A stretch of DNA of 64,000 nt from a virus (IMGVR_UViG_3300044675_001894:1-64000); one strand, 5' to 3'. Counted from the first letter of the stretch, positions 854-63,461 are shown. The notes: generated by a model from the letters alone, not told the origin. Numbers and translations are program-made.

Positions 854-1930
854 TTAGGCAGAGGCGATAGCGCCACCCTTGGTGTTGATCAACACTCGGG
901 ATTCGTGCGTGATTACGCCGAAGCCCCAGATTGCGTACCAAGCGAGACCATGCTCACGACCGAAGTCAATTACGCCACCGTCACGGAGTTCAACTGGCAA
1001 GGCGATTGCCTGACCAAATGCGTTGTCACCGATCATCATTGCGCTGTACGAGGTTGCGCTTGGGTCGTTGATTGAACCACCTGGGGTTACGTCAACGATT
1101 CCAGTGCCACCCTGAAGTACTTGAGTGGTTTCAATGAACACTACGTCGTAGATACGACCGATTTCACCGAGCATGAAGTTTCCTGGAGCGGCATACTTCG
1201 TGACTTCAATGAATTCAGGCCAGTCACGGAGCGAGCGGCTCTGCGATGGGTGAACGAAGCACACGTATGTGTCGCCAAGGCGTGGGATGTTCTGACCAGC
1301 AAGGATTTCAACTGCGTCCTTGATAGTTGCAGGCGAGAGGTAACCAGGAGCCGATGCTGAACCAGCGCTTGAGTACTCGTAAGGAGCGATTGAGCCACGG
1401 GTTGAGCCGTTGGTCGTACGACCGAAGACTACCGATGGAGCAACTGCTGAACCGCCGCCGAATGGAACGCCTGCCGAGTACAGCGTGTTGCGTGCCTGAA
1501 CGTCCATGGACTGTGCCATGTGACGACCGAGCAAGCGGCTGGACGAAGCCATAACGTCATCAAACGATGCGTTCAAGAGAAGTTCGGTTACTGCAACCGA
1601 CTTACCTTGTTCTTTAACGGTGATTTGAATCTGCGATGCAGTCAACGCCGTAGGTTCCATGCGGGTACCTTCGGTAAGTTCTGAACCACTTGCGCCAACC
1701 GAAAGGTTGTTGTAACGCATGAAGTTGACGGTGAGTCCTGGCATTACACCAAGTTCCGTCTTCTTTACTGCGAACTGTTCAAAACGTAGGACTGGCATTG
1801 CCTGGAACAAGATTTCCTTGGACCAGATTTGCTGAATTGCTGGGGAGAGTGCGGTTGCCGAGCCGTAGCCGTTTGGACTAATGCTTGCGGAACTGGTTAC
1901 TACTCCACCTGTTGGGGCTGGAAAAGCCAT
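854..1930 (-). CDS. Major capsid protein (N4 gp56-like family)
   Basis: 358 aa; motifs WSKEILFQAMP, LTEG, YVCFVHP, GEIGRIYDVVFIET, DFGREHGLAWY; follows scaffold and portal. Confidence 0.9.
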   Translation of the reverse strand: MAFPAPTGGVVTSSASISPNGYGSATALSPAIQQIWSKEILFQAMPVLRFEQFAVKKTELGVMPGLTVNFMRYNNLSVGASGSELTEGTRMEPTALTASQIQITVKEQGKSVAVTELLLNASFDDVMASSSRLLGRHMAQSMDVQARNTLYSAGVPFGGGSAVAPSVVFGRTTNGSTRGSIAPYEYSSAGSASAPGYLSPATIKDAVEILAGQNIPRLGDTYVCFVHPSQSRSLRDWPEFIEVTKYAAPGNFMLGEIGRIYDVVFIETTQVLQGGTGIVDVTPGGSINDPSATSYSAMMIGDNAFGQAIALPVELRDGGVIDFGREHGLAWYAIWGFGVITHESRVLINTKGGAIASA

Positions 1931-5614: not shown

Positions 5615-6247
5615 TTATACCGTTTTACGGGTTCTGGTGCTTTCTTGTCCTTGAACATACGTTTGGTATGGGGGACCTGTATACGGGTCAAACCTAGCCG
5701 CAATATTAAGAGCCTTAAGGGCACTCGTTTTAGCCTGCTGGGCTGTCCACTTCTTTTTGTTCATCATGACCTGTAGAGCACCTAGGGCGTAATGCGCCCC
5801 AGACCCTATGGCGTAGATACCACTGGATTCTGAGCACCATGCGTAGTCGCCATCAACCATGTAGATAACGCCATTGACTACCACAATGATGCTGGATCCT
5901 TGTTCTGCAATGTGCTGTTTGTTTTCATTGAGGTCTGGAATTGAATAACCCTGTGCATCAAAGCACTCACGCAATGAAGGAATGAACTTGGCAGTAAAGA
6001 ACTGATCAAGTTTCTTTCCCTTTAGATTTGGAGGTACTGCTGGGGGCTGGAATACATGGTGCAAGATATTGATTGCACGCACATCTCCAGCCGCTCCTAG
6101 CAAGTATTTACCATTAGTAGACACCTTGCTTGAACCTTCACGAAGCGTTCCAGTTTGAGCAAGACCGTCAGCAAACATAGTTGAGATACGTGAGTCAACA
6201 CATACCACAGCAAAGCCGTCACCTTGAATGCCAACGATTGTTGTCAT
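5615..6247 (-). CDS. Proteasome beta-subunit/HslV-like Ntn threonine protease
   Basis: N-terminal M-TTIVG, DSR, K, AGD, AIGSG..YALGAL, D..TG: Ntn-hydrolase signature. Confidence 0.85.
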   Translation of the reverse strand: MTTIVGIQGDGFAVVCVDSRISTMFADGLAQTGTLREGSSKVSTNGKYLLGAAGDVRAINILHHVFQPPAVPPNLKGKKLDQFFTAKFIPSLRECFDAQGYSIPDLNENKQHIAEQGSSIIVVVNGVIYMVDGDYAWCSESSGIYAIGSGAHYALGALQVMMNKKKWTAQQAKTSALKALNIAARFDPYTGPPYQTYVQGQESTRTRKTV

Positions 6248-8010: not shown

Positions 8011-8769
8011 TTAATCAACTATTCCCCTCTGTCGGCGCCAGTTTACCCAACCTACAGCCTGTGCTTGGCTTGGGAGCATCCCTAAGTTACCAGCGGCATT
8101 ACGATGCGCTTCAGAAAATGTGTTGTATCTAGTAGGAGTCTGTAGCCCACGGTCAGCACTCCCAAGTACACGACCAACAGTAATATCGTGAGCATGACGA
8201 TCAACTGTCACGGCTTCAGGGTCATCTGGGTTAACAATGTTTTTAAAGAAGTTCCCTGTTTTCCTGTCCATTGGTAAATATTGTTCTGGCTGTGCGGAAC
8301 CCTCAAGGACTGAACGAGCCTGTGATACCTGCCGCCCAGTTACAAAACCACCACTAGCGGTTCCAGTATCCCTTAATTGGCGTGCCATACGCTGGTTGTC
8401 ATTCCAACCAACCTGCGAACTTAGGATTGCAATAGCGCCAGCCCCACGGCGTACATCGCCTTTTCCAATTTCAGTTGCAAAATCATGGGCACGCTTATAC
8501 CAGTCCATACCAGATTTAACATCTTCTGGACTAGCCGTTTTTACGGCGTGGGTGACGTTATGAACCATGCGATTAAATTGGCTTGGATGTAACTTATCCA
8601 TACGAGCACCCAATGCATTAGTAGGGTCCCAAGCACCAATGTTCTTACTTCCCTCTTTTGGAAGTACTCGTTTATAACCATGTGCTACAGGATCAAAGCC
8701 ACGACCAGTAGGAAGGCTTAGTTCTCCACTGTTTTCTGGTACATACAAATCGCCAGTATCCTTAGCCAT
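8011..8769 (-). CDS. Helical DNA-glycosylase-like protein (DUF7178-like)
   Basis: GMDWY, AILSSQVGW..N, KTGNF..NI, VTVDRHA, QAQAVGW motifs; family recalled, not searched. Confidence 0.6.
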   Translation of the reverse strand: MAKDTGDLYVPENSGELSLPTGRGFDPVAHGYKRVLPKEGSKNIGAWDPTNALGARMDKLHPSQFNRMVHNVTHAVKTASPEDVKSGMDWYKRAHDFATEIGKGDVRRGAGAIAILSSQVGWNDNQRMARQLRDTGTASGGFVTGRQVSQARSVLEGSAQPEQYLPMDRKTGNFFKNIVNPDDPEAVTVDRHAHDITVGRVLGSADRGLQTPTRYNTFSEAHRNAAGNLGMLPSQAQAVGWVNWRRQRGIVD

Positions 8770-11237: not shown

Positions 11238-11255
11238 AGACCAATCATAGACTAA

Positions 11256-11525
11256 TTAGTAATCGGTTTTATCAAACTTGAGTTGGAGTTGCGATTCGTC
11301 GTTAAAGACTGGGCGTCGTGGGCGCAATTCTGAGATTAAGGCGGCTGAGTCCTCAATGATCATAATGAGGCTCTTGAGGTCTACGGAGACACTCTCAGGG
11401 TCTTCTTCAGAGGTCTGGAAGACCTTCGGGGAATACGATTCAGTAACCAAAAAGAGGTCATGAACTGCATTGATAAGGCGTCGTTTTTCGGTTGCTTCTA
11501 GGTTGTTGATAGTTGGTTTTGACAT
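11256..11525 (-). CDS. Hypothetical protein
   Basis: Probable start MSKP (11525), TACTAT 7 nt upstream; track extends to 11591. Confidence 0.55.
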   Translation of the reverse strand: MSKPTINNLEATEKRRLINAVHDLFLVTESYSPKVFQTSEEDPESVSVDLKSLIMIIEDSAALISELRPRRPVFNDESQLQLKFDKTDY

Positions 11526-30080: not shown

Positions 30081-30512
30081 TTACGTGAGGTAGGCATAGC
30101 CAGAGAACGCTGATGTAAAGTTTACTACAACTTGTGTGGTACTTGAGTAGGTAACTTCCCCGATAACTACTGTTTTGGCGCTATCCACAATGGAGACCGA
30201 AGGGTAGCCACCTAAAGCATGGTTAATTGTCCATGTTGTAGCGACTGTTCCTTGAGTGTGGACGTGGCGAACAGATGCGGGGTAAACAAGATTTAGTACT
30301 TGATTTGGAGCAATACCAGTAATATTGGCGCTTGCGGTCTCGGCAACCGTAACTGTCCCAATGCTAAGAACGTTTGGAGGGCCAGCGACACCTGGGTCAT
30401 GAACTTCAATTACTTGGTCAGCAGGATCCGTGACAGTAGAAACCGTTTTCTTCTGCGTTACCGTAACGTACTTGTTCGGTTGCTTGGTTACCTCAACGGT
30501 TTTGGTGGTCAT
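30081..30512 (-). CDS. Virion structural protein
   Basis: HTQ..ATTWTINHALG.YPSV...FTSAFSGYAYL; start moved to MTTK (30512), which overlaps the upstream stop. Confidence 0.65.
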   Translation of the reverse strand: MTTKTVEVTKQPNKYVTVTQKKTVSTVTDPADQVIEVHDPGVAGPPNVLSIGTVTVAETASANITGIAPNQVLNLVYPASVRHVHTQGTVATTWTINHALGGYPSVSIVDSAKTVVIGEVTYSSTTQVVVNFTSAFSGYAYLT

Positions 30513-31225
30513 GCGGGCGGTGTGGAGATAGCGGCTTCTACAACAACAGTTCCAGATGCCAAACAATCCCAATCACCAGCCGAGTCCTGAACAAACAAAT
30601 CAAAGTTGTAACTACCTGCGGCAATTGTGTTTTTGTCTGAAATATGCATTTCTAATGTGGAACCAGCAATTGGAGCAAGATAACCTCGGCGCTCCACAGG
30701 GAGTGCAATAACGGTCGCTTCTGATGGGGTAGACGAGTACCAGCGCAAGTCCAACACAGTGGTGCCTGCGGTGTCCTTTGCCTGCATGTAGGCGTTCTGA
30801 ACGGTAAGGACGTCGCCATCGGCGTCTTTCCATGTAAATGTGCGACGGAAGTCCACACGTTGCTTGAAACGGATTTCCATTGCCTGTGAGTCCTCCATCG
30901 GGGTTATATTGTCAAGAGCCGACACAACGATTGTACCCCGTGCAACAGGGCGCTGAATATCGTCAATAGTGGCGAGGACGTCATATTCAAGTTCTCCTAG
31001 AGGGAGGTCTTGGGTCTCTTCGGCGCTCAAGTAGAGCATAATGCCATTTGCACTTGTTATTTCAACAGTCACTTCTTTTTTAGCCAAATTCGTTGTCTGG
31101 ATAAATGACCGAGCCTCAGTAGGCTTTATCTGTTTACGGGTGCGGCGATCCTTGACAATGATCAAGCGCTCCCAAGGTAACCCACGGACAATTGAATAAT
31201 TAACGGTGTGGGCACTAGTAGTCAT
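30509..31225 (-). CDS. Virion structural protein with two related domains (BppU-like)
   Basis: Internal duplication ending YDVL...GTIVV and FDLF...GTVVV; leaderless (TAAACT 6 nt upstream). Confidence 0.6.
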   Translation of the reverse strand: MTTSAHTVNYSIVRGLPWERLIIVKDRRTRKQIKPTEARSFIQTTNLAKKEVTVEITSANGIMLYLSAEETQDLPLGELEYDVLATIDDIQRPVARGTIVVSALDNITPMEDSQAMEIRFKQRVDFRRTFTWKDADGDVLTVQNAYMQAKDTAGTTVLDLRWYSSTPSEATVIALPVERRGYLAPIAGSTLEMHISDKNTIAAGSYNFDLFVQDSAGDWDCLASGTVVVEAAISTPPA

Positions 31226-33723: not shown

Positions 33724-34488
33724 ATGGATTTATCTGACCTGACTATACCTGCACCGCTTCCTGGTCCTGCTGATTGGAATGATGACGGCTTTGTCATTAA
33801 AAAAGGATTGCTTCCAGAAGACCTAATGGTTGCATATGAGCAGTGTTGGGTAGAACATAATGAGGCAAGACCTGGTGGTTGGCCTGACTGTACTCCGTAC
33901 CGTCGTCACCCAGAAGTATTAAATATTCTTACCCATCACATGATTAACGACACGATGGAACAATTGATTGGCGAACCTGCCGCTGTTCACTTAAACCTAA
34001 CTGGTTGGGTTACTACTCGCCGTAACTGGCATCAAGACACTTATCTCAATCCATCACACGTTGGTGACTACTACGTTGCAATTTGGATTGCACTGGAAGA
34101 CATCCATCCAGATTCTGGTCCATTTCAATTTGTTCGTGGATCACACAGGTGGCCTACGGTTACAAGAGAAAAGATCCTTAACGCATTAGACCCATCTGAG
34201 CGTGACCATACATGGCCTAAGCACAGTGAGCGCTTGCTCACTCCGTTGTTTGAAGCCGAGATTGAAAAGCGTAATGCGGAAGTAATCACATATCTTCCAA
34301 AACGTGGAGATGTTTTGTTCTGGCATGGTCGTTTGCTACACCGTGGTTCTGAACCAAACGTTCCTGGAATGCAACGCAAATCATTAATTGCACATTACTC
34401 AGGAGTTAATCACCGACAAGATATGCCTACTGCTGTACCCCATGGTAGTGGTTGGTACTTTCCAATTGATGGAGGAAATGTTCAATGA
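33724..34488 (+). CDS. Phytanoyl-CoA dioxygenase-family 2OG-Fe(II) oxygenase
   Basis: WHQD, WIALED...SGP...GSHRW, GDVLFWHGRLLHRG, R.SLIAHY. Confidence 0.85.
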   Translation: MDLSDLTIPAPLPGPADWNDDGFVIKKGLLPEDLMVAYEQCWVEHNEARPGGWPDCTPYRRHPEVLNILTHHMINDTMEQLIGEPAAVHLNLTGWVTTRRNWHQDTYLNPSHVGDYYVAIWIALEDIHPDSGPFQFVRGSHRWPTVTREKILNALDPSERDHTWPKHSERLLTPLFEAEIEKRNAEVITYLPKRGDVLFWHGRLLHRGSEPNVPGMQRKSLIAHYSGVNHRQDMPTAVPHGSGWYFPIDGGNVQ

Positions 34489-35066
34489 AACTTTTAAATG
34501 TTGGTTGTGGAACACACTACGCACAGGGTTGGGTAAACGCAGATACATGGGAAACAGATGACACTAAACCAGATGTCAAAGTAACTCCTGGTGAACCATA
34601 TCCTTTTGAAGACAATACGTTTGATGCCATCTATATGGGACATGTATTGGAGCACATTCCTTGGTTAGAAGTATCTACCTTCCTTAAAGATATGCAACGC
34701 ATTGCTAAACCTAATGCACCGATGCTTATTGTTGGACCCGACGTCCATAAAACTATTAAGCGATGGAAAGACGGACAAGAGCCATGGTGGCTAGTTGAGT
34801 CAGTTATGGAGCATTTAGATGTTCCCGACACACATGTCCCTGGTTTGGAATGGTGGGATGGTGCACACCATCATTGGAACTGCCACGAGACAAGAGTTGA
34901 GAAGTTATTGACTTCGTTGGAGTTCAATAGCATTGTTAATCAGTTTGATGTAATACCTAATGATCCAAACGGTAAGTCATGGTTTGACGCAGACAACCAG
35001 ATTGAATGGCCTGTTGTAGGTAAATACTATTGGCAATTAGCCTTTAGTTGTAAAAACCTTATTTAA
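34485..35066 (+). CDS. Class I SAM methyltransferase (type 11-like)
   Basis: LNVGCG, GWVNAD, YPFEDNTFD, HVLEH. Confidence 0.85.
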   Translation: MKLLNVGCGTHYAQGWVNADTWETDDTKPDVKVTPGEPYPFEDNTFDAIYMGHVLEHIPWLEVSTFLKDMQRIAKPNAPMLIVGPDVHKTIKRWKDGQEPWWLVESVMEHLDVPDTHVPGLEWWDGAHHHWNCHETRVEKLLTSLEFNSIVNQFDVIPNDPNGKSWFDADNQIEWPVVGKYYWQLAFSCKNLI

Positions 35067-36171: not shown

Positions 36172-36188
36172 CTACCAATTATAGATGA

Positions 36189-36398
36189 TTAGACCTTAGA
36201 GCGCCTCTTGAAGTCCGTGTGGGTACCAAGGTATGAGTAAGTCTCATACTCTGGCTCTTCTTTAGGTGCTGGCGAGGTGTATTCGTAAGATTCTACAGAG
36301 CGCATTACAAAACGATGAAATGAACGAATAGCGAATATAATGGCGGCGGCAATAAAGAAGGTAGTCATAAGGGGTTTAAGTATAACCGATTTGGTCAT
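36189..36398 (-). CDS. Small membrane protein
   Basis: One hydrophobic helix. Confidence 0.5.
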   Translation of the reverse strand: MTKSVILKPLMTTFFIAAAIIFAIRSFHRFVMRSVESYEYTSPAPKEEPEYETYSYLGTHTDFKRRSKV

Positions 36399-36401: not shown

Positions 36402-36575
36402 TCATCCTCCATTGGAATAAAAGCCACGACCGACCAGATTGACGGCTGGAGAGAAGTAGACAGGGCGTAACTGCTCACCGCAGTCTGGACAATTGATTAC
36501 TTGTTGTTCGTCATAGATACTGCGGGTTTCTTCATGACGGTGGTCATTCCCGCATTTGTAAGCATATGTTGGCAT
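36402..36575 (-). CDS. FmdB-family zinc-ribbon protein
   Basis: Manual translation MPTYAYKCGNDH...CPDCG...GRGFYSNGG; TAGACT 6 nt upstream. Confidence 0.8.
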   Translation of the reverse strand: MPTYAYKCGNDHRHEETRSIYDEQQVINCPDCGEQLRPVYFSPAVNLVGRGFYSNGG

Positions 36576-36584: not shown

Positions 36585-36953
36585 CTAGTCGTATTGAACG
36601 GGGATTTCTGAACGTGGGTTGATGTCATTGGCAACCGCAATGCGGTGGTGCCCATCTTCAATGACAGGACCTTTGTAATCGGCTCCAGGAAAGTAATCGT
36701 ACATACGACCACGAACACTGAAAGGATGTTGACCTATTGTGATTGGGTCTTGTACACCTTCACTCTTAATTTCATTGTACAAACCTTCAGTTTTTGCTTC
36801 TTGTACTTTACGAGAAGTTACTTGAGGAAGATCTTTGTACTTTTGTGGTTTATCAGTTTCTGGCTGATCTAACGGGATCATATCCATCAACTTGTGTGCA
36901 GGGATGAACATAGCCAATTGGGCTTCGTTCAGGACATGCTTCTTTTTACCCAT
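36585..36953 (-). CDS. ParB/Srx-like N-terminal domain protein
   Basis: IKSEGVQDPI, IEDGHHRIAVA. Confidence 0.75.
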   Translation of the reverse strand: MGKKKHVLNEAQLAMFIPAHKLMDMIPLDQPETDKPQKYKDLPQVTSRKVQEAKTEGLYNEIKSEGVQDPITIGQHPFSVRGRMYDYFPGADYKGPVIEDGHHRIAVANDINPRSEIPVQYD

Positions 36954-37408
36954 TAGCGTTTGTAACGAGCACCTTTTTTACCGAGGTTTACACGACCTAG
37001 ATTATCAGATACATCCTCACCAGTTTCTGGATCAGTCATGGATCCTGGGCGAATCTTTAGAGGCTTACCGCCACGCATGCTGGGACCAATGTTCCCTTTG
37101 ACAAATGTGTTACGTGTCTTAGCACCTGTTGGACTTTCTAAATGCTTTTTAAGTTGTTGAGCATCTATTGCCATAGCGGCGCCGTCTAATGAAACATTTC
37201 GGCTGTGCCCAATAAGACGGCGAGTGTTATCAAGAATGCTGTAAATAGGCTCACCCAAGGCTTTCATAGCAGGGGTGTGCATATGGACGTTGACGGGCGT
37301 GCCTCTAAGACCAATCATGGACTCAGGACTAATAATACGGACAGGTGCTCCACGAACAATATGCTCTTCAGAAAACTGAATGCTATTGAAAGCACGCCTA
37401 CTAGTCAT
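36953..37408 (-). CDS. Hypothetical protein
   Basis: 151 aa, coupled; N-terminal AFNSIQF. Confidence 0.65.
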   Translation of the reverse strand: MTSRRAFNSIQFSEEHIVRGAPVRIISPESMIGLRGTPVNVHMHTPAMKALGEPIYSILDNTRRLIGHSRNVSLDGAAMAIDAQQLKKHLESPTGAKTRNTFVKGNIGPSMRGGKPLKIRPGSMTDPETGEDVSDNLGRVNLGKKGARYKR

Positions 37409-38250
37409 TATTCAATTCCTGGGAGTTTCATCTGCTCGCCTTGCATAGCAGGTCGTTTTTCACGCTTATTTAATCCAGCAAGTTTGTAGGCTGTTTGCCT
37501 ACCTTCAGCAATAGTTTGATTTGACAAACGATCATGATCACTAAAGTCAAGGTGTTCTGGACGATGAGCCATACTCCACTTAGTGTCGTCATTCCTATTT
37601 AGTGTTTGCCTACCTGATTCGTTACTTACGGCTCCCTTAATGGCTCCCTTTTCTATTCCTCTACGAGCCAACCTACTGCTGTATTGCGTCATACTGCTAG
37701 GGCTGTGGAACTCCGCATCAGGGTGATCGTTCATAGCAATACCTATAAGGGTAGGTAAGGAACCACGCAATGTAGGGTGCACGAAAGCATTCTCAAATTG
37801 AACTTTACGTGGCTTACTTGTAAAAAACTCTGTAGGTACAGGAATGTCTTTGCGAGTTTCCGCAGGAGCATTGTGGTCTAATGCAGCACGTAGTTTCTTT
37901 GTAGGTTCAGGGTTACGTGTTGCAACCATGTCGGCTGTTGCTTTTTGGTTTTTGTCCCACATGTAGTGTTGGCTAATACCAGTATCTAAAGTCTGTTGGG
38001 CGTGTGGGTACCTAGGGTCATGGGTGTTTGCTTTTAGGTTGTCCATGTTTTTTTGATCAAAGTCAAAGTTAACAATGGTTTCAGCAGGTTCAATGGTCTC
38101 TACTGCGATATGCCCATACGGTGTGTGAGTTGGGGGTTTCTTAGACATCTCATCAAACTGGTTACCGTGAACCAACTTATCCCCGACAATGGAATACTTA
38201 CTGTTTCTACCACCGTACCAGTGGCTATCTTTCTTATAAAACTTAGCCAC
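37408..38250 (-). CDS. Hypothetical protein, paralogue of 38699..39523
   Basis: Shared K(F/Y)Y...YGGR, AF.H, SSR and Q..LPG motifs. Confidence 0.7.
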   Translation of the reverse strand: MAKFYKKDSHWYGGRNSKYSIVGDKLVHGNQFDEMSKKPPTHTPYGHIAVETIEPAETIVNFDFDQKNMDNLKANTHDPRYPHAQQTLDTGISQHYMWDKNQKATADMVATRNPEPTKKLRAALDHNAPAETRKDIPVPTEFFTSKPRKVQFENAFVHPTLRGSLPTLIGIAMNDHPDAEFHSPSSMTQYSSRLARRGIEKGAIKGAVSNESGRQTLNRNDDTKWSMAHRPEHLDFSDHDRLSNQTIAEGRQTAYKLAGLNKREKRPAMQGEQMKLPGIE

Positions 38251-38261
38251 GATGCTTTATA

Positions 38262-38492
38262 TTAGTATTCTGATCCTGGGTTCATGACCATATGTGCAAT
38301 GTCACGATAATCACAGCAACGTGGACAACCACAGTCACCCGCTACTGCACCAAGAAACGCCGCCTGACGCATAGGGCGGGTTGTAGGGTTTGGCTGATCA
38401 GAGGAACCAATACGCTGTCCAGAAATGCTTGGAGCGCCCTCACTTGGAGAACTTGGATCAGGGTTGTTTCGGTTTACTTTGCGTTTTGCCAT
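38262..38492 (-). CDS. Small hypothetical protein with CGCPRC
   Basis: Start moved to MAKR (38492), TACAAT 6 nt upstream. Confidence 0.6.
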   Translation of the reverse strand: MAKRKVNRNNPDPSSPSEGAPSISGQRIGSSDQPNPTTRPMRQAAFLGAVAGDCGCPRCCDYRDIAHMVMNPGSEY

Positions 38493-38533
38493 GTACCGAT
38501 TGTACAACTAAACAAAATTACCCGCTCACCCCA

Positions 38534-38563
38534 AAAGTATCACTGATGTATACGAGTTGTCAA
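38534..38563 (-). promoter_or_regulatory. Sigma70-type promoter
   Basis: TTGACA-N18-TACTTT with TGn extension on minus strand. Confidence 0.5.
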
Positions 38564-38698
38564 GACCTTTTAGCGAAAAAATACACATGTATATTTCGTA
38601 CACACGTCAGATGGCAGTTAAACTAAGTGTGTAAAGGCTAATAAGCCTCTGTATTAGTGCCTTAACCTACAAGTTGTACTTTCACCAAAAAATTGTGT

Positions 38699-39523
38699 CT
38701 ACTTGTCTTCCATACCAGGGAGTTGTGGCTGACTGAACTGAGGACTCAACGGCTTAGGGGTATTTTTACCAATACCACGGAGTTCCTTGTAGTGTTGCTT
38801 TGCCGAACGCATGGTTGAATCAGGGATCCTCTTAGTACTAGATGTACTAAACGGTGTAGCAGAAGAAACCATGTCTCTATTATCAAAGTCGTAAGAGTTT
38901 GTAACGTCTAGTCCTGGGTTATCTTCACTGCGCTTTACAGGCAGTCCTAGTTTTTCGGCATGTTCAGTCATGCGTGAACTATGCTCTGACAGGTCATCTG
39001 ATGCCGTAAGGTCACCATACTTCTGATGAAGGTATGCTCCCATGACAGGGATATGGGCTTTCATGGATGTATGAGCAAAAGCCCCACGTACTTCTGTAGA
39101 GGCAGGCTCAGGGGTAAACATTTGAGAAGTTGTTTTATGGATTTCATTTATGTTTTGTGCGTAAACTAAGCCGTAATAACGACGACTGTACTGCCTCCCA
39201 CTTGGGTTAGGTTTGTTTTTGTACTCTTCATGAGCCTTAGCCGCCTCTACTGCGTAGTAGTGGGCCTTGTTAGCCTCACCTGTGAGTTCATGCCTGTCAA
39301 ATCCTGTTGCATCAAACACTTTTTGACCTGCTTGGCTTCGTGTAATTTCAGAATTGTCTTCTAATTGCTTGAAATTCTCACGCTCACGGGCTGGTTGGTG
39401 TCTAACGGTCATAGTTGCACGTGGGTACATACCACGAGCGTTAGGGCGGTCACTAATTGCGTGAACTTCTTCGTAAGTCAATCGTCCGCCATAAGGAGTC
39501 TGGTCTGAGTAGTATTTAGTCAT
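38699..39523 (-). CDS. Hypothetical protein, paralogue of 37408..38250
   Basis: Ends PLSPQFSQPQLPGMEDK. Confidence 0.7.
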   Translation of the reverse strand: MTKYYSDQTPYGGRLTYEEVHAISDRPNARGMYPRATMTVRHQPARERENFKQLEDNSEITRSQAGQKVFDATGFDRHELTGEANKAHYYAVEAAKAHEEYKNKPNPSGRQYSRRYYGLVYAQNINEIHKTTSQMFTPEPASTEVRGAFAHTSMKAHIPVMGAYLHQKYGDLTASDDLSEHSSRMTEHAEKLGLPVKRSEDNPGLDVTNSYDFDNRDMVSSATPFSTSSTKRIPDSTMRSAKQHYKELRGIGKNTPKPLSPQFSQPQLPGMEDK

Positions 39524-39858
39524 TACTCGTCCTTTGTAGGAAACTGCTGGTTGGATAGGTATTCACGCCTTCTTTTGGTGTTTCTGTATTTTACTTTTGG
39601 TAATGTGATTTCACCAGAAGACAATCCGTGTAAGTAATCTTCTTGGGCGGATTGGATATAGTCTCCCCATTCAGCCTGATTAGGGCGGATACGACCCATA
39701 TTGCGAGGACCCATTGAGATGTCGCCGTATTCTTCCTGCTCTACATCGTCTGTATATCTGCCCATAGGTTTACGAGGCTCTGAGTCTCCTTTTAACGATG
39801 TGTAGTTAGTTACACGCTCTTTAGCCCGAGGCGGAAGTGGCTTGCGAGGATCCTGCAT
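39523..39858 (-). CDS. Hypothetical protein (leaderless)
   Basis: TATAAT 6 nt before ATG; ends YLSNQQFPTKDE. Confidence 0.65.
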   Translation of the reverse strand: MQDPRKPLPPRAKERVTNYTSLKGDSEPRKPMGRYTDDVEQEEYGDISMGPRNMGRIRPNQAEWGDYIQSAQEDYLHGLSSGEITLPKVKYRNTKRRREYLSNQQFPTKDE

Positions 39859-39900
39859 AAACTAATTATAGACGGTCATCACCAAAAAATTATGCAGATA

Positions 39901-40218
39901 CTACTGACCCATCTTCTTTTTCCAGTTTGCACCTTCATCAGATGAGGTCGGACCAATATCAATTGGACCATAGTGTGACTCGGCGGCGTTAAACATTGCG
40001 GTGGCTACACCTCTGTTTTGATACCGTTTGTTTGTAGCAATACCGAACACTACGTGCTCACGCTCTTGTCCAGAATTAAAACCGAGCATGACGCCTAAGC
40101 GACCAGTAACGGTCTTACCACTGCGTGCTTCAACATCACCGAACGGGTTCGTACGGATCGTGTGCTCTTTACCACGCTTGTCTACGAACTGGTGGCTGAG
40201 ACTCTCATATGCTGACAT
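39901..40218 (-). CDS. GNAT acetyltransferase
   Basis: Motif A YQNRGVATAMF; S.EG..W. Confidence 0.75.
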   Translation of the reverse strand: MSAYESLSHQFVDKRGKEHTIRTNPFGDVEARSGKTVTGRLGVMLGFNSGQEREHVVFGIATNKRYQNRGVATAMFNAAESHYGPIDIGPTSSDEGANWKKKMGQ

Positions 40219-40221
40219 GTA

Positions 40222-40590
40222 CTACGCTCCTGGTCTCTGGTCTACAGAATAACGTACAGGTACTTCCATGTTTGGGTCAATATCATGGGCTGTGGCAATA
40301 CGATGGTCACCATCCCATACTCGTACACCAGAGCCATAATTTGTTAGACGCAGGTGTACAGGGGTTTGAACCCCTTCTTTTTTAATATTGTCGTAAAGAC
40401 TCTCTTTTTTACCCCCATATGGGTGTCCCTCTTTAGATTCTCGCAATTTTGTAGCACGTAGGTTAGGAGACTCAGCCATAGGAAGATAACCTGAACTAGA
40501 TGTTTCCTCACCTGCGGCGGGGTATGTCATCAGTTCCCGTGCAGGGATAAACATGGACAACTGACCACTGAGGTGCTCTTGTGCGGGCAT
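40222..40590 (-). CDS. ParB/Srx-like protein, paralogue of 36585..36953
   Basis: QLSMFIPARELM, IKKEGVQTPV, WDGDHRIATA, EVPVRY. Confidence 0.75.
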   Translation of the reverse strand: MPAQEHLSGQLSMFIPARELMTYPAAGEETSSSGYLPMAESPNLRATKLRESKEGHPYGGKKESLYDNIKKEGVQTPVHLRLTNYGSGVRVWDGDHRIATAHDIDPNMEVPVRYSVDQRPGA

Positions 40591-40607
40591 TTATCTAGTA
40601 TAGAGGG

Positions 40608-40994
40608 TTACTTAACTTCAAGCACATTCTCTGGAGGAATGTGACCCCAGTGCATTGCTGAACCTGTTTGGCGAAGGCTATTCTTCCAGTCACTAGAATC
40701 ATCAGTACGTAGTTTAGACTCATCAAAATTTCTATTTACGCTTGTGTGTACAGGATCCTCAAAGGAGTTCCAGTCCACTTGCAGGTTTCTTGGGTTTACA
40801 CGGACTTTTACGATTGCTGGGTCTTTGTGCATACTGGCGTAGTGTTCAGCCAATTCATGGTCAGGTGTTACATAAACATTGGGCTTACCGAGTCCTGTGC
40901 GTGCACCTATCCCATGTTCTTTAATGTCTTGAGCGTTCTCTTTTGAAGTCCCATGGTACATATGCATGTGGAACTGGTCGGGACTAAGAGCCAT
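40608..40994 (-). CDS. ADP-ribosyltransferase-fold protein
   Basis: YHGTS...I...G, VYVT...A.HYA, IPPE..: H-Y ART/Tpt1-like signature. Confidence 0.65.
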   Translation of the reverse strand: MALSPDQFHMHMYHGTSKENAQDIKEHGIGARTGLGKPNVYVTPDHELAEHYASMHKDPAIVKVRVNPRNLQVDWNSFEDPVHTSVNRNFDESKLRTDDSSDWKNSLRQTGSAMHWGHIPPENVLEVK

Positions 40995-41132
40995 AGTTTC
41001 AAGTATAGGGCTATTTGGGCGGGTTGGGTGGTCGGTCGGATTTTTGGATGGGGCTATTGCGGTGGAGCAGTTCGGGTGGGGCCTGTTGTCTACCCCCCGC
41101 CTCCGCTCGCCCCCTCACTTAACCATGGGGGG

Positions 41133-41232
41133 TTATCCACAGCCCGCTCCATGCCCTGTATGGCTCGCATGGGTTATCCACAGGTACCCCTGTGTACAGC
41201 CTGTGGATACTGTGGAACATCTCTGTGGAACA
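41133..41232. promoter_or_regulatory. DnaA-box cluster
   Basis: TTATCCACA at 41133-41141 and 41174-41182; reverse-oriented TGTGGATAC 41202-41210, TGTGGAACA 41211-41219 and 41224-41232, TGTGTACAG 41191-41199. Confidence 0.75.
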
Positions 41233-41239
41233 TTGGGGG

Positions 41240-41253
41240 CGAACACCCGTTTG
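41240..41253. promoter_or_regulatory. LexA (SOS) box-like site
   Basis: CGAAC-ACCC-GTTTG, one mismatch to CGAAC-N4-GTTCG. Confidence 0.5.
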
Positions 41254-41317
41254 TGTGACGTTCGTCACGTGTGACCATCGTCACATGGATTGTTCCAATC
41301 GTGTGACATTCGTCACA
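41254..41317. promoter_or_regulatory. Three CRP/GlxR-type sites
   Basis: TGTGA-CGTTCG-TCACG 41254-41269; TGTGA-CCATCG-TCACA 41270-41285; TGTGA-CATTCG-TCACA 41302-41317. Confidence 0.75.
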
Positions 41318-41787
41318 AACCCTTGACAAACGCCAAAACGCCTCAGACGCACCACAATGCGTTCTCAGAGGAGGAGGGAGGGATGTAAGGGGTCAAGGCG
41401 GGCAGTGGTACAAAGTACCCTCAGAGAGGCTCTCGTACGCCTACGAATAGGGCTATGAGCCTTGCTGGGTAAGGGTTTGCGGGGTATGGGTAGGTTACGA
41501 AGTACTCGCCACAGCGCCCCAATTGCTATCCACTGCACACTCGCTCCATATCGGCACCTGCACGCAACACAGAGCCTCCTAGGCACCTCTCCTGCCATCC
41601 TGCGGTATTCATTGATCAATTGAATTCTGTGGGTATTCATGCCTCCTCTCTCCTGTATCTCCTCCTCCATCCGATGGATGGCTGGTCGTTGGGGGCGCCC
41701 AATTCCAGCCCTGTCCCCGCCGTCCCGAGGCTCCAGCCCATGCTGGGCAAGGCTCAAAAGAATTCTCAGGAATTGTTTAATTGGGGG

Positions 41788-59318: not shown

Positions 59319-59504
59319 TTATTCCGTGTCTGTTCTGCCGTACAAAGGTTGCATAGTCAACAAGCCATCATTGCATGATTTACACAAATGGGCTGTGAGA
59401 TGTTCAGGGCTTTCCTGCTCTGTATCGCAATGAACGCAGGTGCGCTTATAGTCCTTCTTATTGACCGAAGGGTTACCTCTAAACGCCCGATAGTCGGGAC
59501 GCAT
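59319..59504 (-). CDS. Small zinc-finger protein
   Basis: CVHC...LCKSC. Confidence 0.5.
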   Translation of the reverse strand: MRPDYRAFRGNPSVNKKDYKRTCVHCDTEQESPEHLTAHLCKSCNDGLLTMQPLYGRTDTE

Positions 59505-59505
59505 G

Positions 59506-59709
59506 TTATTGGTGCAGGTGTGCTTCGGGAGCGTTAGCCAAAGGGGTGCGCTCTACTATGCCGTATTGTGCTTGGAGTTCCATAGCACGCACTGAAGCGT
59601 CAGTTGGATCAAGGTCACCACCACGGTCTGGTGTGGTGCTCTTAAACTTACCGTCCTTGGCACCAAGGCGAAGGTCGTTGTTCATTGAGCGGGTTTCGTT
59701 TACAGCCAT
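59506..59709 (-). CDS. Small hypothetical protein (leaderless)
   Basis: TAGGAT 7 nt upstream of ATG. Confidence 0.65.
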   Translation of the reverse strand: MAVNETRSMNNDLRLGAKDGKFKSTTPDRGGDLDPTDASVRAMELQAQYGIVERTPLANAPEAHLHQ

Positions 59710-59722
59710 AGTATTAATCCTA

Positions 59723-60391
59723 TCACGGTTTCTGGGTATTTAGAGATTCACGTATTTTGTTAATAGCGTCAGCGCCCATAGACCTACGTTGTGAGCGGGT
59801 CTTTGCTGGTGTTTTAGCAGGTGCAGTACGCTGTGCTTTCATCTGAGCCACTCCAGCAACAGCACTTTGTTGCAGTGGGGTCAATGGTGGGCGAGCAGGG
59901 GGAGGAGTTCCTGGTGCTGGGAACGCTTGGTTCTGCGATGGAGTTCCGAATGGTTGTACTCCTGGCGCTGGTGGTGGCATTGCTTTACTAGGCAATGCTG
60001 GTGCAGGGGACTTTTGAAAAGCGGCTTGATATTGTGCTCGGTTAGCAAGTCCTACATACTGACTATAAAAGTTCTGACCAGCCTGCTGACTCTGTTGAGC
60101 CTGTTGGGCTTGTGCTTGACGGTTCAGGTTTCGGTTAACAAGCCCTTGTCCAATTGCATTAACAGCATCGGCAGTAGCGCCTGGTTTGGTGCGGGTGTCA
60201 CGGATTTCTCCGCCACGCCACGCCTGCTGTACGCCAGCATTTGGGGCTTGGTACTTATTTTGCTGAGTGCGATTACCCTGCTTAAACTCACCCTGCATCC
60301 ATGATGGTGTGCGGTTTAAGTAACTCGCATTCATTGACTGCCAGCGAGAGGTGCTTAAGTTACCAATGTAGTCACTGTCATTGTCAGCCAT
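59723..60391 (-). CDS. Q/P/A-rich disordered protein
   Basis: Low-complexity 222 aa. Confidence 0.65.
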   Translation of the reverse strand: MADNDSDYIGNLSTSRWQSMNASYLNRTPSWMQGEFKQGNRTQQNKYQAPNAGVQQAWRGGEIRDTRTKPGATADAVNAIGQGLVNRNLNRQAQAQQAQQSQQAGQNFYSQYVGLANRAQYQAAFQKSPAPALPSKAMPPPAPGVQPFGTPSQNQAFPAPGTPPPARPPLTPLQQSAVAGVAQMKAQRTAPAKTPAKTRSQRRSMGADAINKIRESLNTQKP

Positions 60392-60393
60392 AG

Positions 60394-60711
60394 TTACATC
60401 CCCAAACTTTGCATTGAATAGCGACTAGAACCTGAGAAGTTGTCTTCCATGAATGTACCATCACGGAACATTACAGGAGCGCCAGAAACCCATGAACGAT
60501 TTGAAGCCGCATAACGGTCAATGTTCAGTACATCCATGATGCCCATTGTCTGTTTCTCAAAGCCACGGTTTTGTGGGAACACTTGCTGTGGGTAGACAGG
60601 GCGAATCTTGCGAATGGTGTCTGGATCAGATATGGCGTTCTGCAATGCCATATCAACGAGCATCTCGGTGTGAGACTGCCACGGGCGTGAAGGTGGGACT
60701 TGTTGAGCCAT
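60394..60711 (-). CDS. Hypothetical protein
   Basis: 105 aa in operon. Confidence 0.6.
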   Translation of the reverse strand: MAQQVPPSRPWQSHTEMLVDMALQNAISDPDTIRKIRPVYPQQVFPQNRGFEKQTMGIMDVLNIDRYAASNRSWVSGAPVMFRDGTFMEDNFSGSSRYSMQSLGM

Positions 60712-60714
60712 TAG

Positions 60715-61125
60715 TTAGTTGTACCAACCGTTTTTGTACTTATCTTCACGGCTTTCACGCTCAGGTAACTTAGGACGTGGCATACCGTATGGGTTTGCAT
60801 CGTCATTACCACTCTTCTTAGGCTTGTCTTTACCAGCATCACCAGTTTTAGTCTTAGGCTTCTTTGGTGGTTGTTTGCCACCTTCGCCTGCCATGGCTTT
60901 GTAAATGTTGCGTGGGGACAAGTCAGAGATACGTGCTTCTTGACCCGTGTACTCAGGGGTGTTGGGGTCATCCAAATCTGGATTTCCTGGACTACCCATA
61001 AGGGCGTTCTTAAGGCGACTAGCGCCTTTTTGCAGACCACCAGACGCAGGATGGTTGCGCATCTTGTATGCGTTCATGTCAACAATACGTGCACCGTTGC
61101 GTGATTCGTCATTACCTTTTGCCAT
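60715..61125 (-). CDS. Disordered basic protein
   Basis: 136 aa, G/P/K-rich. Confidence 0.6.
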   Translation of the reverse strand: MAKGNDESRNGARIVDMNAYKMRNHPASGGLQKGASRLKNALMGSPGNPDLDDPNTPEYTGQEARISDLSPRNIYKAMAGEGGKQPPKKPKTKTGDAGKDKPKKSGNDDANPYGMPRPKLPERESREDKYKNGWYN

Positions 61126-61127
61126 GG

Positions 61128-61619
61128 TTATTTCCAGTTCGGTGCTAGGGATTTGAGTTGAGAACGGCGTTGAAGGCTGATTTCTGTAGCCTCTTCACGC
61201 TTTTGGTCTCGTGAAATACCACGAGGACCGACCTTGCCATCATTAGTAAGACGCACAGGCTCTGCACCAGTTGGCGCAAACTTCAAACCTTGTGCTTGAT
61301 ACTGAAGAGCAGTATAAAGGTTGAACTCATCGGGCCAAATGTAATCGCCCGCATTAATCCGTTCACCTTTATGCACACCACGTGAGTACTGGCGAGCATT
61401 CATTCGGCTGAGTGAGCCGAGGATCTTGTCTTGACGGCGGTTAGCCGACATGGTGCCAAGGTATCCGTCTGGATACTGGGTGTCAGCGCCTGTCTGGTAA
61501 CCAGATAGCGCTAGGTCTTTGGCGTTGCGGAATACTGGGCTAGGACCAAAGTCGGACTGCGTGCCTACACCGTTTTGCGCCGCTGGAGTCATCCATGATG
61601 TAAAAGTGTTTTTGCTCAT
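61128..61619 (-). CDS. Hypothetical protein
   Basis: YPDGYLGT, RGVHKGERI...Y.WP. Confidence 0.7.
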   Translation of the reverse strand: MSKNTFTSWMTPAAQNGVGTQSDFGPSPVFRNAKDLALSGYQTGADTQYPDGYLGTMSANRRQDKILGSLSRMNARQYSRGVHKGERINAGDYIWPDEFNLYTALQYQAQGLKFAPTGAEPVRLTNDGKVGPRGISRDQKREEATEISLQRRSQLKSLAPNWK

Positions 61620-61783
61620 ATGCCCGTTTGACCTTGTCCGCTCGGACTGAGCAGACCACCCATTATACCTCCACCTAGAGGTGAGATTGGGCGTATTGCA
61701 TAGCGGGCACCGCCACGCTCACCAGTCATAGATGCAGGAGTCCTACCGATAGTAGGTTTGCGAGGCTTCTTCTTGGAAGCCAT
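61616..61783 (-). CDS. Small basic protein
   Basis: Manual translation MASKKKPRKPTIGRTPASMTGERGG... (55 aa), fills the gap exactly. Confidence 0.5.
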   Translation of the reverse strand: MASKKKPRKPTIGRTPASMTGERGGARYAIRPISPLGGGIMGGLLSPSGQGQTGI

Positions 61784-61785
61784 GG

Positions 61786-62412
61786 TCACATCTCGTTAGG
61801 TTTTTTGGCTTTAGGGTTAGGAATTGTTGCCTTCGGGTAAGTCTTGTTGGCAACTGAAGGTGCATCAATGCGCTTAGTGCGCTTGCTAGGTTTGTCATTA
61901 GGCAACAATGCCATGCGCCGTTCACGCTTTGCTTTACGGGTTGCGTTTAGTTTTTCTGAAGCCATTGCTTTAACAGTTGCATTGCGCTCTTCAACATACT
62001 TGTCTCTGCCAGCCATGTACTCATCATGAGTAGCAGGGGTGCCTACAGTTCTACCCAGTAAACGTGGATGGTTCTTTTCTAGTTGCTCAGGTGACGCTGT
62101 TTTACCTGTTGACTCAAGTCTTTCAACTGTTTGGGTATTTGGGTCACGCAAAGCAATACGGACGTTTCCTACATCACCAATGTGGCTTGTCTTGGTTGAA
62201 GTGTTGCGCTCAATTTTAATACGGTTAGTCCACTTGACTGGATACCCAGCATCGTCTGGACCCAATGTCCCTGCTTCACGGGCAGGAGTGTGGATCATAG
62301 GAACAACAGTTTCAGTAGGTTCTTCTGAAGACTTACCAGTGTTTGGTAGATCCCAAATCTTAAATGAAGACTCTGAACTTGCTCCAGATGCGAAGTGGTC
62401 TTTACGAGCCAT
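61786..62412 (-). CDS. Basic, largely disordered protein
   Basis: 208 aa, K/R/P-rich tail. Confidence 0.6.
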   Translation of the reverse strand: MARKDHFASGASSESSFKIWDLPNTGKSSEEPTETVVPMIHTPAREAGTLGPDDAGYPVKWTNRIKIERNTSTKTSHIGDVGNVRIALRDPNTQTVERLESTGKTASPEQLEKNHPRLLGRTVGTPATHDEYMAGRDKYVEERNATVKAMASEKLNATRKAKRERRMALLPNDKPSKRTKRIDAPSVANKTYPKATIPNPKAKKPNEM

Positions 62413-62693
62413 TAACGACCAGATACATCGTATGGTTTGGCGTAACCGTTCTTCATGCCCCAGTCTTTATCCATCTGTGATAAGCGTGCATCAACTTGCG
62501 GAGTTGTCATTGCTGGCTTACCACCTGATCCCAGTTTTCCTTGGGCATCAAGTTGCTTAGGAGAGCCAGTTGGGCGAGTTGTTACCCATGATGGTGGTTG
62601 TGGTGGAGCGCTACGCATACCACGATGTGGTTCGTTATTTGAAATACGGCTGTGGATGCTCATGGCTGTTAGTAACCTGCTTCTTTCAACCAA
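62412..62693 (-). CDS. Small disordered protein
   Basis: Start probably MSIH. Confidence 0.55.
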   Translation of the reverse strand: MVERSRLLTAMSIHSRISNNEPHRGMRSAPPQPPSWVTTRPTGSPKQLDAQGKLGSGGKPAMTTPQVDARLSQMDKDWGMKNGYAKPYDVSGR

Positions 62694-62959
62694 CTATCAT
62701 CTTCTTTAGCGGTTGCTTGAGGTTCAGCCGCTTTTGCACGGATTCCGTCACCCCACACATCTCGCTTCATGTTTCCAACCTCATCTTGTTCGTAAGCCCT
62801 GTTTTGAGGAGCCAGAGGTTTTCCGTTTTTGCCATAACCACCAGATGAAAATACGTTTTGTGCACCTGGAACGTACGCTTGACCTGGTTGGGTGAACTGT
62901 TTCTTCTTTGCTGGGTACTCAGGGTACGAACCACCACGAATCTTGCTAAAAATGCCCAT
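62669..62959 (-). CDS. Small disordered protein
   Basis: 96 aa in operon. Confidence 0.6.
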   Translation of the reverse strand: MGIFSKIRGGSYPEYPAKKKQFTQPGQAYVPGAQNVFSSGGYGKNGKPLAPQNRAYEQDEVGNMKRDVWGDGIRAKAAEPQATAKEDDSWLKEAGY

Positions 62960-62961
62960 AG

Positions 62962-63168
62962 TTAGTCTTCTACTTTCGTCAAAAAGGATTTAGAGGAATC
63001 ATAATCAGGATGCTTTTCCATACCTGCTGGCATGTCAAGGTCATCACTGTCTTGTGTTACGCCGTGAGGGTCATCCCCACGACCTGCATTGTAAGCACGA
63101 TGGTGCACCATTTTTGAACGGGCAGCGGCTGGAAGAGTGCCTCGCAATTTTGGGCTGATATCTGCCAC
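62962..63168 (-). CDS. Small hypothetical protein
   Basis: 68 aa, GTG start with GAGG RBS. Confidence 0.55.
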   Translation of the reverse strand: MADISPKLRGTLPAAARSKMVHHRAYNAGRGDDPHGVTQDSDDLDMPAGMEKHPDYDSSKSFLTKVED

Positions 63169-63170
63169 GA

Positions 63171-63461
63171 CTACCTCACAATTGGTTTGAAGGAGATAGC
63201 CGAAATGGATTCTCCGTTATCACCAATAATATCATCAAACCCAATAATGTAAGTAAGATCCACACCACGTGGGGCAACAAAGCCTCTGGCAATTGCGGCG
63301 GCTTTTGCGGCTTGGTTGACTGCGCTTGCACCAATCGCTCGCATCTTTGGCGCTTGCCCTGCGTTCACTGCACGAGCAAGAATGGATCCAACGCTCTGTG
63401 GGTTGCTGGAACCCGAGACTTTGAGGACGTCTTCAATTGGGGAATTAAGTTCTTGTGACAT
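63171..63461 (-). CDS. spoVS: SpoVS-family (Alba-like) protein
   Basis: VLKVS..SNP.SV...A......AIGA.AVNQA.KA.AIARGFVAP.G.DL. Confidence 0.9.
   Translation of the reverse strand: MSQELNSPIEDVLKVSGSSNPQSVGSILARAVNAGQAPKMRAIGASAVNQAAKAAAIARGFVAPRGVDLTYIIGFDDIIGDNGESISAISFKPIVR

Follow-up and report, generated by a model that had tools for sequence, protein, structure and literature searches.

A portable terminal peptide on unrelated small proteins of freshwater actinophages: a possible capsid-loading tag

The internal proteins of phage T4, which are described as diverse and fast-changing defence and takeover proteins, share a short N-terminal capsid-targeting sequence (CTS), and the genes of its carriers need not lie in the head module, as reported in PMC3012670. 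In phage P1, DarB's 30 N-terminal residues are reported to suffice to load a reporter into capsids (PMC9024508), and according to PMC5512222, phage proteins presumed to be packaged repeatedly contain ADP-ribosyltransferase (ART) and ParB domains. Encapsulin cargoes are described as unrelated enzymes that enter an HK97-fold shell by way of a short terminal peptide common to them (PMC8346489, PMC11866011). The protease Prp is reported to cleave both L27, whose long form has the cleavage motif MLxx(D/N)LQ(F/L)F'A(S/H)KK (PMC9405229), and capsid and scaffold proteins of the staphylococcal phage 80alpha (PMC9405229, PMC5744158); in staphylococcal phages, capsid, scaffold and tail proteins are said to bear this leader (PMC5744158). 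Here we describe a short peptide found near the ends of unrelated small proteins encoded at positions 36585-40994 of the viral stretch IMGVR_UViG_3300044675_001894:1-64000 (the window, 64,000 nucleotides long). This peptide, hereafter the tag, has the core pattern h-[S/N]-x(1-2)-Q-[F/L], where h is hydrophobic. It is a portable label, and we propose, tentatively, that it loads enzymes into the capsid as in T4 and P1. In open-access papers and bioRxiv we found no published description of such a tag in actinophages.

Nine consecutive open reading frames (ORFs) form the cassette, which adjoins a divergent regulatory region (41133-41328). Seven of the nine, or seven of the eight large genes, carry the pattern. 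In five proteins (the ART-like, GNAT and 151-amino-acid (aa) proteins and both ParB-like proteins) the tag lies at most 13 residues from the N-terminus, and in two (111 aa and 274 aa) at most 17 residues from the C-terminus. The cassette genes, with the zinc-ribbon gene at the cassette end, are listed here.

40608..40994, minus strand: ART-like gene, 128 aa; N-terminal tag MALSPDQF, core LSPDQF at residues 3-8 (40971-40988)
40222..40590, minus strand: ParB/sulfiredoxin (Srx)-like gene 1, 122 aa; tag LSGQL at residues 7-11 (40558-40572)
39901..40218, minus strand: GNAT gene, 105 aa; tag LSHQF at residues 7-11 (40186-40200)
39523..39858, minus strand: 111-aa protein, function unassigned; C-terminal tag LSNQQF at residues 101-106 (39541-39558), five before the stop
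38699..39523, minus strand: 274-aa protein; C-terminal tag LSPQF at residues 259-263 (38735-38749), then LPGME (38708-38722)
38262..38507, minus strand: 81-aa ORF without a tag, an uncertain gene
37408..38250, minus strand: 280-aa paralogue of the 274-aa protein; end ...KLPGIE (37411-37425), no tag that conforms to the pattern
36953..37408, minus strand: 151-aa protein; N-terminal tag FNSIQF at residues 7-12 (37373-37390)
36585..36953, minus strand: ParB/Srx-like gene 2, 122 aa; tag LNEAQL at residues 8-13 (36915-36932)
36402..36575, minus strand: zinc-ribbon protein, 57 aa, no tag; Pfam Zn_ribbon_8, E=2.6e-9

An earlier reading of the window (the sequence-only reading) had quoted nine such peptides, all of which are found in the sequence, and had counted the tag in eight of nine consecutive genes. 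Seven of these nine genes fit; VHGNQF of the 280-aa protein is a variant that lies off the pattern and internally (at about residue 36, within an unaligned insertion of its family), and we therefore count seven of nine ORFs, not eight. The eight large cassette proteins hold eight matches to the pattern, against a mean of 0.099 in 5000 shuffles, none of which reached eight. Across the whole 96.9-kb record there are 13 matches in 154 ORF-called proteins against 3.19 in shuffles, and none of 1000 shuffles reached 13; three of the 13 are internal, and another, LNQNQL, comes from a conserved fibre N-terminus and probably has nothing to do with the tag.

Since the pattern had been fitted to the window, it was applied unchanged to other genomes, counting matches within the first 16 residues and using 300 shuffles per genome. 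In what follows, G000 is this record, other G-numbers are whole relative records and L-numbers are IMG/VR loci. N-terminal matches were found in 6 of 150 proteins of G001, 5 of 138 of G002, 6 of 150 of G003, 2 of 158 of G010 and 2 of 129 of G006, where 0.17-0.23 were expected and the shuffle maximum was 2-3. Proteins shared between this record and G002 or G003 are about 50-80% identical, and G006, a relative of 96% completeness, retains tags along with a capsid protein of 66% identity. When the ORF-called proteins of six genomes and nine loci, 1104 in all, were grouped into 512 BLAST families (five of the nine loci had been fetched through the tag pattern, which guarantees one match each), 28 families had an N-terminal match against 1.5 expected (maximum 6 in 200 shuffles), and seven had a C-terminal one. 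At least two of the 28 (the fibre N-terminus and the 52008 family) are probably unrelated to the tag, which recurs on about 25 unrelated families in the clade.

Because so short and degenerate a pattern was settled on with the data already in view, one might ask whether chance, or a shared N-terminal ancestry of the carriers, had produced it. Chance is refuted by the shuffles, none of which reached the observed counts, with genomes not used for the pattern included; the enrichment over background that the sequence-only reading had predicted is thus present both in the window and outside it. As to shared ancestry, the carriers show no mutual BLAST match at E<=1e-4 and differ in fold. Neither is at all a probable source of the tag.

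The conserved entity is the peptide and not the DNA. The GNAT tag LSHQF is kept in six of six orthologues despite synonymous codon changes; it is written CTC AGC CAC CAG TTC here and CTT AGT CAT CAA TTT in G002, with four of five codons scored as different. Among 65 distinct terminal pattern matches, a set that mixes true tags with chance matches, Q is encoded by CAA in 38 and by CAG in 27, the Phe and Leu codons vary, Ser occurs as both AGY and TCN, and the spacer is one or two residues long. Orthologous tags thus keep their residues while their codons change, which shows that the peptide, and not the nucleic acid, is selected. The tags sit at gene starts and ends, several of the genes look leaderless and the gene content of the cassette turns over fast, all of which would suit an operator, a leaderless-mRNA translation signal or a recombination linker with the peptide as a by-product. 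The codon, serine and spacer variation largely refutes such a nucleic-acid element, and the tag is found on genes with a ribosome-binding site and on leaderless genes alike, some leaderless cassette genes being untagged; we consider this explanation very improbable.

In relatives, the tag is often preceded by M-A-A-H-E-x, giving a longer consensus M-[A/P/S]-A-[H/Q/Y]-E-x-[L/I]-[S/N]-x-x-Q-[F/L]. Shorter ones, among them M-x-L-N-P-D-Q-F and M-x-L-G-K-Q-F, also occur, and long and short forms alike are found on families that are absent from the window. Within one family the tag may differ: the 151-aa family keeps it with a changed sequence, its members starting with MTSRRAFNSIQF in one case and, in the G003 orthologue, with MTTFSEQF, and members of a further family start with MAAHEGINWDQF and MATPNGPQF. 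The C-terminal Q-F of the 111-aa family is kept in four of four members (the L003 protein ends in ...AHMSEQFGE), and LSxQF is present in 8 of the 12 sequences of the 274-aa family (alignment A3). The tag is also optional within single families, which have homologues both with and without it; two of 13 ART-like homologues, for instance, start directly at the first strand (YHGT) with no tag.

The tag positions are predicted to be flexible protein ends, because the predicted local distance difference test (pLDDT) score is low there in two AlphaFold 2 models. The model of the 274-aa protein (12 sequences) has a mean pLDDT of 68.3, and the stretch with the tag and LPGME, residues 253-274, scores mostly below 50; in ParB-like 1 (19 sequences, mean 81.4) residues 1-8 are below 50. 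The block of residues 11-20 of ParB-like 1 has a mean of 92, so in this model the tag, which reads on into QLSMFIPAREL, runs straight into the fold, and the QLxMFxPAxEL stretch of the ParB-like proteins is modelled as part of the domain and not of the tag. Taken together, the enrichment in relatives, the codon variation, the tagged and untagged homologues and the low-confidence tails make the tag a portable peptide label; the portable behaviour proposed in the sequence-only reading is borne out by the codon variation and by the recurrence over 28 of 512 families. We infer from this portability that the tag is an address or handle read by one common partner.

The carriers were claimed to be unrelated, and this holds: they comprise a ParB/Srx fold, a marginal GNAT, a weak ART-like protein and proteins without a known fold. 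The two ParB-like genes belong to the ParB/sulfiredoxin superfamily: the top PDB matches of the ParB-like 1 model are all ParB, KorB or sulfiredoxin (probability 0.96-0.99, E 0.007-0.02), and a DGxHR motif is present (alignments A1 and A4), with no Pfam match for either protein. The GNAT protein matches Pfam Acetyltransf_1 at 20.8 bits, marginally over the cut-off of 20.7. The ART assignment of the gene at 40608-40994 is weak. Its product matches Pfam ART-PolyVal at E=0.013 (16.7 bits, under the cut-off of 31.2) and a PHROG RNA 2'-phosphotransferase family at E=0.0012; any ART-family match at all occurs in 3 of 13 aligned family members, none over the cut-off, with Arr-ms at E=9e-4 in 2 of the 13, and the family profile found no match among PDB sequences. 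The fold of the 274-aa family had no PDB match either, and its low-confidence model gave weak GNAT-like structural rows in Atlas. Among ten more tagged or neighbouring proteins scanned against PHROG, only a metallophosphoesterase and one family of unknown function were matched. No DNA relative of the cassette was found among GenBank phages, and no protein relative there for ParB-like 1 or the 274-aa protein.

The 274/280-aa family has a second feature at its end. LPG[M/L/I]E is invariant in 12 of 12 members, lies 0-3 residues before the stop and usually follows the Q-F tag directly or at most nine residues on; an unrelated family of about 580 aa in G003 has the same LPG-type end, and LPG[M/L/I]E may be another C-terminal module that is portable. 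The gap at 38262-38700, which separates the two large paralogues, holds overlapping ORFs on both strands, 81 aa on the minus and 84 aa on the plus strand, and the plus-strand ORF (38292-38546) is conserved equally with the 81-aa ORF in G001 and L007.

The DNA comes from an uncultured actinobacterial phage of lakes, and the window makes up the opening 64 kb of a 96,857-bp IMG/VR virus record with a completeness rating of 100%; the phage is present in lake metagenomes (nine runs contain half or more of the sampled words, with no RNA run among those listed), encodes WhiB (E=5e-13) and has a capsid gene whose nearest cultured relatives are Streptomyces phages (59-60% identity). It is a myovirus, with a tail sheath, the major head protein (854-1930), an SPP1-type portal (2816-4504), a 265-aa protein encoded between these two (1969-2766) and a large terminase (9678-11237), and the tag-bearing clade as a whole consists of freshwater actinophage myoviruses of 85-98 kb. 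A host search with ribonucleotide reductase as bait found no relative.

A scan of IMG/VR for one start version of the tag, M-x-L-N-P-[DE]-Q-F, returned 86 stretches, of which 80 loci were analysed; eleven of these hold at least three tagged ORFs, with new lineages in L161, L186, L187, L191 (G+C 0.41) and L213 (G+C 0.63). The same narrow version, the only one searched for in this sample, starts no protein in an even sample of 401 genomes from the phylum to which a Streptomyces genome belongs. The tag thus appears phage-specific, and a host protein mimicked by the tag was rejected on this absence. In phage BRock, no tag was found at any annotated start in the first 50,000 of 112,523 bases. A 79-aa family on low-G+C viral contigs (L153, L168, L173, L181, L190, L211, L218 and L222) starts with MAFNP[E/D]QF, followed by a basic stretch and DPNAPPRPN, which resembles an HMG box; this family is probably unrelated to the actinophage tag.

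A sister clade (G414-G418) of complete 94.5-96.5-kb genomes with direct terminal repeats, represented by L310, L376 and 72 other IMG/VR stretches, has several ART-like and other small proteins, up to four in a row, that start with MGRNNxDF. MGRNNxDF has the same length and final F as the x-Q-F tag, with some x-Q-F tags beside it, and is a second version of the tag.

The most likely partner of the tag would be the assembling head, either the capsid shell or the scaffold. On this proposal, the unrelated small enzymes (ART-like, two ParB/Srx-like, GNAT and proteins of unknown fold), each carrying the shared short linear peptide, would be loaded into the procapsid and would leave with the DNA at the next infection. 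The effector-like carriers, the phage-specific tag and the T4 and P1 precedents are consistent with packaging, as are several links to the head region, the features of which are as follows.

854..1930, minus strand: major capsid protein; PHROG major head protein, E=1.3e-62
5615..6247, minus strand: HslV-like Ntn peptidase; Pfam Proteasome, E=3.1e-8; PHROG HslV family, E=1e-25
8011..8769, minus strand: DUF7178 protein, 252 aa; LHPSQF at residues 60-65 (8575-8592); Pfam E=1.7e-49, domain from residue 59

Capsid and terminase proteins are common to every whole clade record tested, with the capsid protein 56-81% identical across G001-G003, G006 and G010 and 62-66% in G414-G418; cassette-bearing loci such as L213 include no capsid gene. 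The variable slot between the terminase and portal genes is tagged in every genome examined. It is filled in G000 and G003 by a DUF7178 protein with LHPxQF, in G001 by a 457-aa protein with the C-terminus ...GINWDQFKS and in G002 by a 401-aa GP88-family protein with the C-terminus ...HMSGQQFGESE, and in L213 a tagged gene follows the terminase gene. The tagged slot and the shared capsid are together no more than suggestive of a link between tag and head and of the capsid as reader. In the window the slot belongs to an unusual block of about ten genes (5615-9631) between the terminase and portal genes, which includes the HslV-like peptidase (start MTTIVG) and a 393-aa metallophosphoesterase.

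The gene at 8011 had been called glycosylase-like, a description that we could not support, as its Pfam match is DUF7178. Its LHPSQF lies at the junction of an N-terminal extension and the Pfam domain. This family is the plainest instance of a tag that comes and goes among homologues. In 12 lake-phage loci, an extension of 35-60 residues ends in LHPxQF just before the DUF7178 domain, and the same place holds N[L/I]AQSQF in four loci and IMSQQL in seven; extension and tag are absent from 56 of 80 IMG/VR DUF7178 loci and from Streptomyces homologues, which start at the domain. Three untagged DUF7178 proteins (L079, P0018 and P0021) have [Q/E]-[Q/E]-F at the aligned place, and part of the match may belong to the domain itself.

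Several observations weigh against packaging. Whereas the signals of T4 and P1 are N-terminal, the tag is found at C-termini and at a junction inside a protein as well; a scan of head-module proteins turned up no canonical prohead protease; and the analogy to T4 Alt is built on the weak ART assignment. An N-terminal Q-F is present in three virion-module proteins, at 532-771 (79 aa, beside the capsid gene), 9230-9631 (133 aa, after the terminase gene) and 84728-86374 (548 aa, after the tape-measure gene) of the record, but its Q is not kept in G002 and G003, and we rejected these three as tag carriers, their Q-F being probably due to chance. In the relative G006/L132 the tagged genes lie among genes for DNA polymerase, RecA and ribonucleotide reductase, and L125 keeps the gene order from SpoVS to DUF7178 of this relative. 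Finally, individual cassette genes, at least four in number, are each preceded by a leaderless-type promoter of the form CTATA[AC]T-N6-7-ATG, and the cassette begins 140 bp from the region placed at the head of the early genes. The following boxes were located.

41002..41007, minus strand: TATACT, -10-like hexamer of a leaderless-type promoter, 7 nt before the ATG of the ART-like gene
40597-40602, minus strand: equivalent hexamer of ParB-like 1
39865-39870, minus strand: equivalent hexamer of the 111-aa gene
36172-36191, minus strand: similar box of a lipoprotein-like gene
11238-11257, minus strand: similar box of the terminase gene

The full arrangement is (TAACC)-n-CTATA[AC]T with the start codon 6-7 nt on, and it is concentrated on cassette genes in G000, G002 (three of the genome's five sites) and G003 (three of three). 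Such promoters fit enzymes made straight after infection; the terminase gene has a similar box ahead of it, however, so the leaderless-type box is no guide to timing. A scan for E. coli-type promoters and terminators was uninformative, with fewer promoter-like sites than in shuffles.

Some of these observations suit a different account, in which early enzymes made from their own promoters would all be docked by the tag on one host or phage hub protein (the replisome, nucleoid, RNA polymerase or ribosome being candidates), so that varied chemistries act at one place. The N-terminal, C-terminal and internal flexible positions of the tag are in line with docking, as are the leaderless-type promoters beside the early regulatory region, the replication-gene setting in G006/L132 and the fact that the commonest carriers are DNA-related ParB/Srx domains. 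Sliding-clamp-binding motifs are of the QLxLF type, with Q and then hydrophobic residues at positions 4 and 5. The same phages do have peptides of this kind: the ParB-like proteins carry QLSMF, QLAMF or QLRMF at residues 10-14, and C-termini reading ...NPDQLSLF, ...QQPSLFD and ...PEQLNLFD, which we take to be like classic clamp-binding peptides, are found in G002 (75581-75817 and 30295-30909) and G003 (7188-8126), in loci L046, L044 and L038. The general tag, however, does not fit the clamp-type motif, which among tag carriers is confined to the ParB-like proteins, nor any other known hub-binding motif, and what follows Q-F varies from tag to tag; a search for a sliding clamp encoded by the phage found none. 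The MGRNNxDF version of the sister clade is also easier to account for by a co-evolving phage-encoded reader than by a host hub that is conserved, although different hosts could explain it as well. The 57-aa zinc-ribbon protein, which is encoded within the cassettes of G000-G003, G010, L003, L007, L161, L186 and L187, was rejected as a universal partner, as it is absent from G006. Setting the cassette's own promoters and the replication-gene context against the precedents and the head links, we place the probability of packaging at roughly 0.4 and regard docking as possible and only a little less probable. That the tag is, more generally, a cargo-loading peptide for the interior or scaffold of the HK97-fold procapsid throughout a large clade of freshwater actinophages, working from either end in the manner of encapsulin cargo peptides, is possible though less likely than not.

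A third account takes the tag for the site of a protease that would, in the way of Prp, remove a leader or trim a tail, with the cut activating or releasing the enzymes. The L27 motif as given in PMC9405229 contains L-N-x-Q-F and fits the pattern, the position of Q at about residues 6-12 resembles the 13-14 residues removed from the 80alpha proteins, and the same motif is reported on non-homologous proteins of other staphylococcal phages (PMC5744158). However, Prp (PF04327) had no match in the phage record and was over the cut-off in none of the 401 sampled genomes, where the single sub-threshold match has an in-frame stop, and we rejected it as the tag protease. The residue after the tag Q-F is variable (H, S, V, P, A and others), so the F'A context is missing, and long L27 is placed in Firmicutes, Tenericutes and Fusobacteria (as described in PMC9405229). 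The tag resembles the Prp/L27 motif, but we do not place it in the Prp system.

The sequence-only reading had also named the phage's Ntn protease as a possible partner. The 97-kb group keeps the HslV-like peptidase, its gene placed between those of the terminase and the portal, but it had no match in the tag-bearing G006; in the cultured Actinomycetia lake phage DSL-LC01 an HslV-like gene lies beside WhiB among small genes and not in the head module, and no tag cassette was found in the 40.6 kb read of that phage. This candidate for tag reader or protease was dropped on both grounds, the absence from G006 also counting against a processing leader, an explanation that we consider unlikely. The conservation of the peptidase, and the terminal and flexible setting of the tag, would equally suit a degron through which a host Clp-type protease, or the HslV-like one of the phage, would destroy the enzymes at a set time and so confine their action to one phase of infection. 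With HslV absent from G006, no likeness to a known degron noticed and no precedent found for a degron on a dozen proteins, this is less likely still.

Some further observations concern the surroundings of the cassette. Downstream of it lie the zinc-ribbon gene, small membrane proteins and, further on, fibre genes; the plus strand at 33724-35066, inside this otherwise minus-strand cassette-to-fibre block, encodes a PhyH-family dioxygenase and a methyltransferase. At 59319-63461 of the window, a run of low-complexity Pro/Gly/Gln-rich proteins stands beside a SpoVS-family gene (63171-63461), and this stretch is syntenic with the region of L125 and G006 that holds DUF7178 and tagged genes.

If one partner reads the tag, dozens of unannotated accessory proteins of abundant lake phages would form one functional class that can be recognised from sequence. 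Were the destination the capsid, phages of the most abundant freshwater bacteria would hold the first multi-cargo loading signal beyond the T-even phages that can be recognised by sequence, and with it a ready means of packaging foreign proteins. Cargo loading would further mean that each phage sends along with its DNA as many as a dozen enzymes, in a set that can be swapped, that injected effectors can be read from the tag alone in any genome of the clade, and that x-Q-F and MGRNNxDF mark co-evolving pairs of tag and reader. Were the destination a host hub instead, it would point to a single actinobacterial weak spot on which many phage enzymes converge. The near-identity to the Firmicutes Prp/L27 leader, in a phylum where no Prp was found in 401 genomes, is an unexplained convergence.

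Compared with the T4 CTS, the tag is alike in being a short peptide shared by the N-termini of unrelated proteins (five of eight cassette proteins here). It differs in its additional C-terminal and junction positions and in that no T4-type prohead protease was seen; the carriers here are enzymes of 50-280 aa in an actinophage, and the comparison with T4 is one of descriptions. In P1, anti-defence enzymes, including DdrB with its ParB-like domain, likewise enter a myovirus head by an N-terminal signal of fewer than 30 residues; according to the P1 authors' account there is no consensus among the Dar N-termini, whereas here the consensus is obvious, and the Dar proteins are large and multidomain where the carriers here are single-domain. 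Polyvalent proteins hold the same kinds of effector domain (ART and ParB) proposed to enter with the DNA (PMC5512222), but are described as joining 2-15 domains in one polypeptide, in contrast to the single-domain ORFs here, each with its own tag; a search among 102 candidates for a longer, fused form of the ParB-like protein found none, though this is weak evidence.

Encapsulin cargo genes usually adjoin the shell gene. The cassette here, unlike these, lies about 35 kb from the capsid gene, the comparison being one of gene placement. The Prp/L27 leader shares with the tag a near-identical core L-[N/S]-x-Q-F at the extreme N-terminus, a similar length and non-homologous phage carriers, and is set apart by its F/A cleavage context, its structural carriers in place of accessory enzymes, and a protease absent from this phage and from the sampled genomes of the host phylum. 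The system would work like the capsid signals of T4 and P1 and looks like the Prp leader, and by the defining tests of each it is placed with neither.

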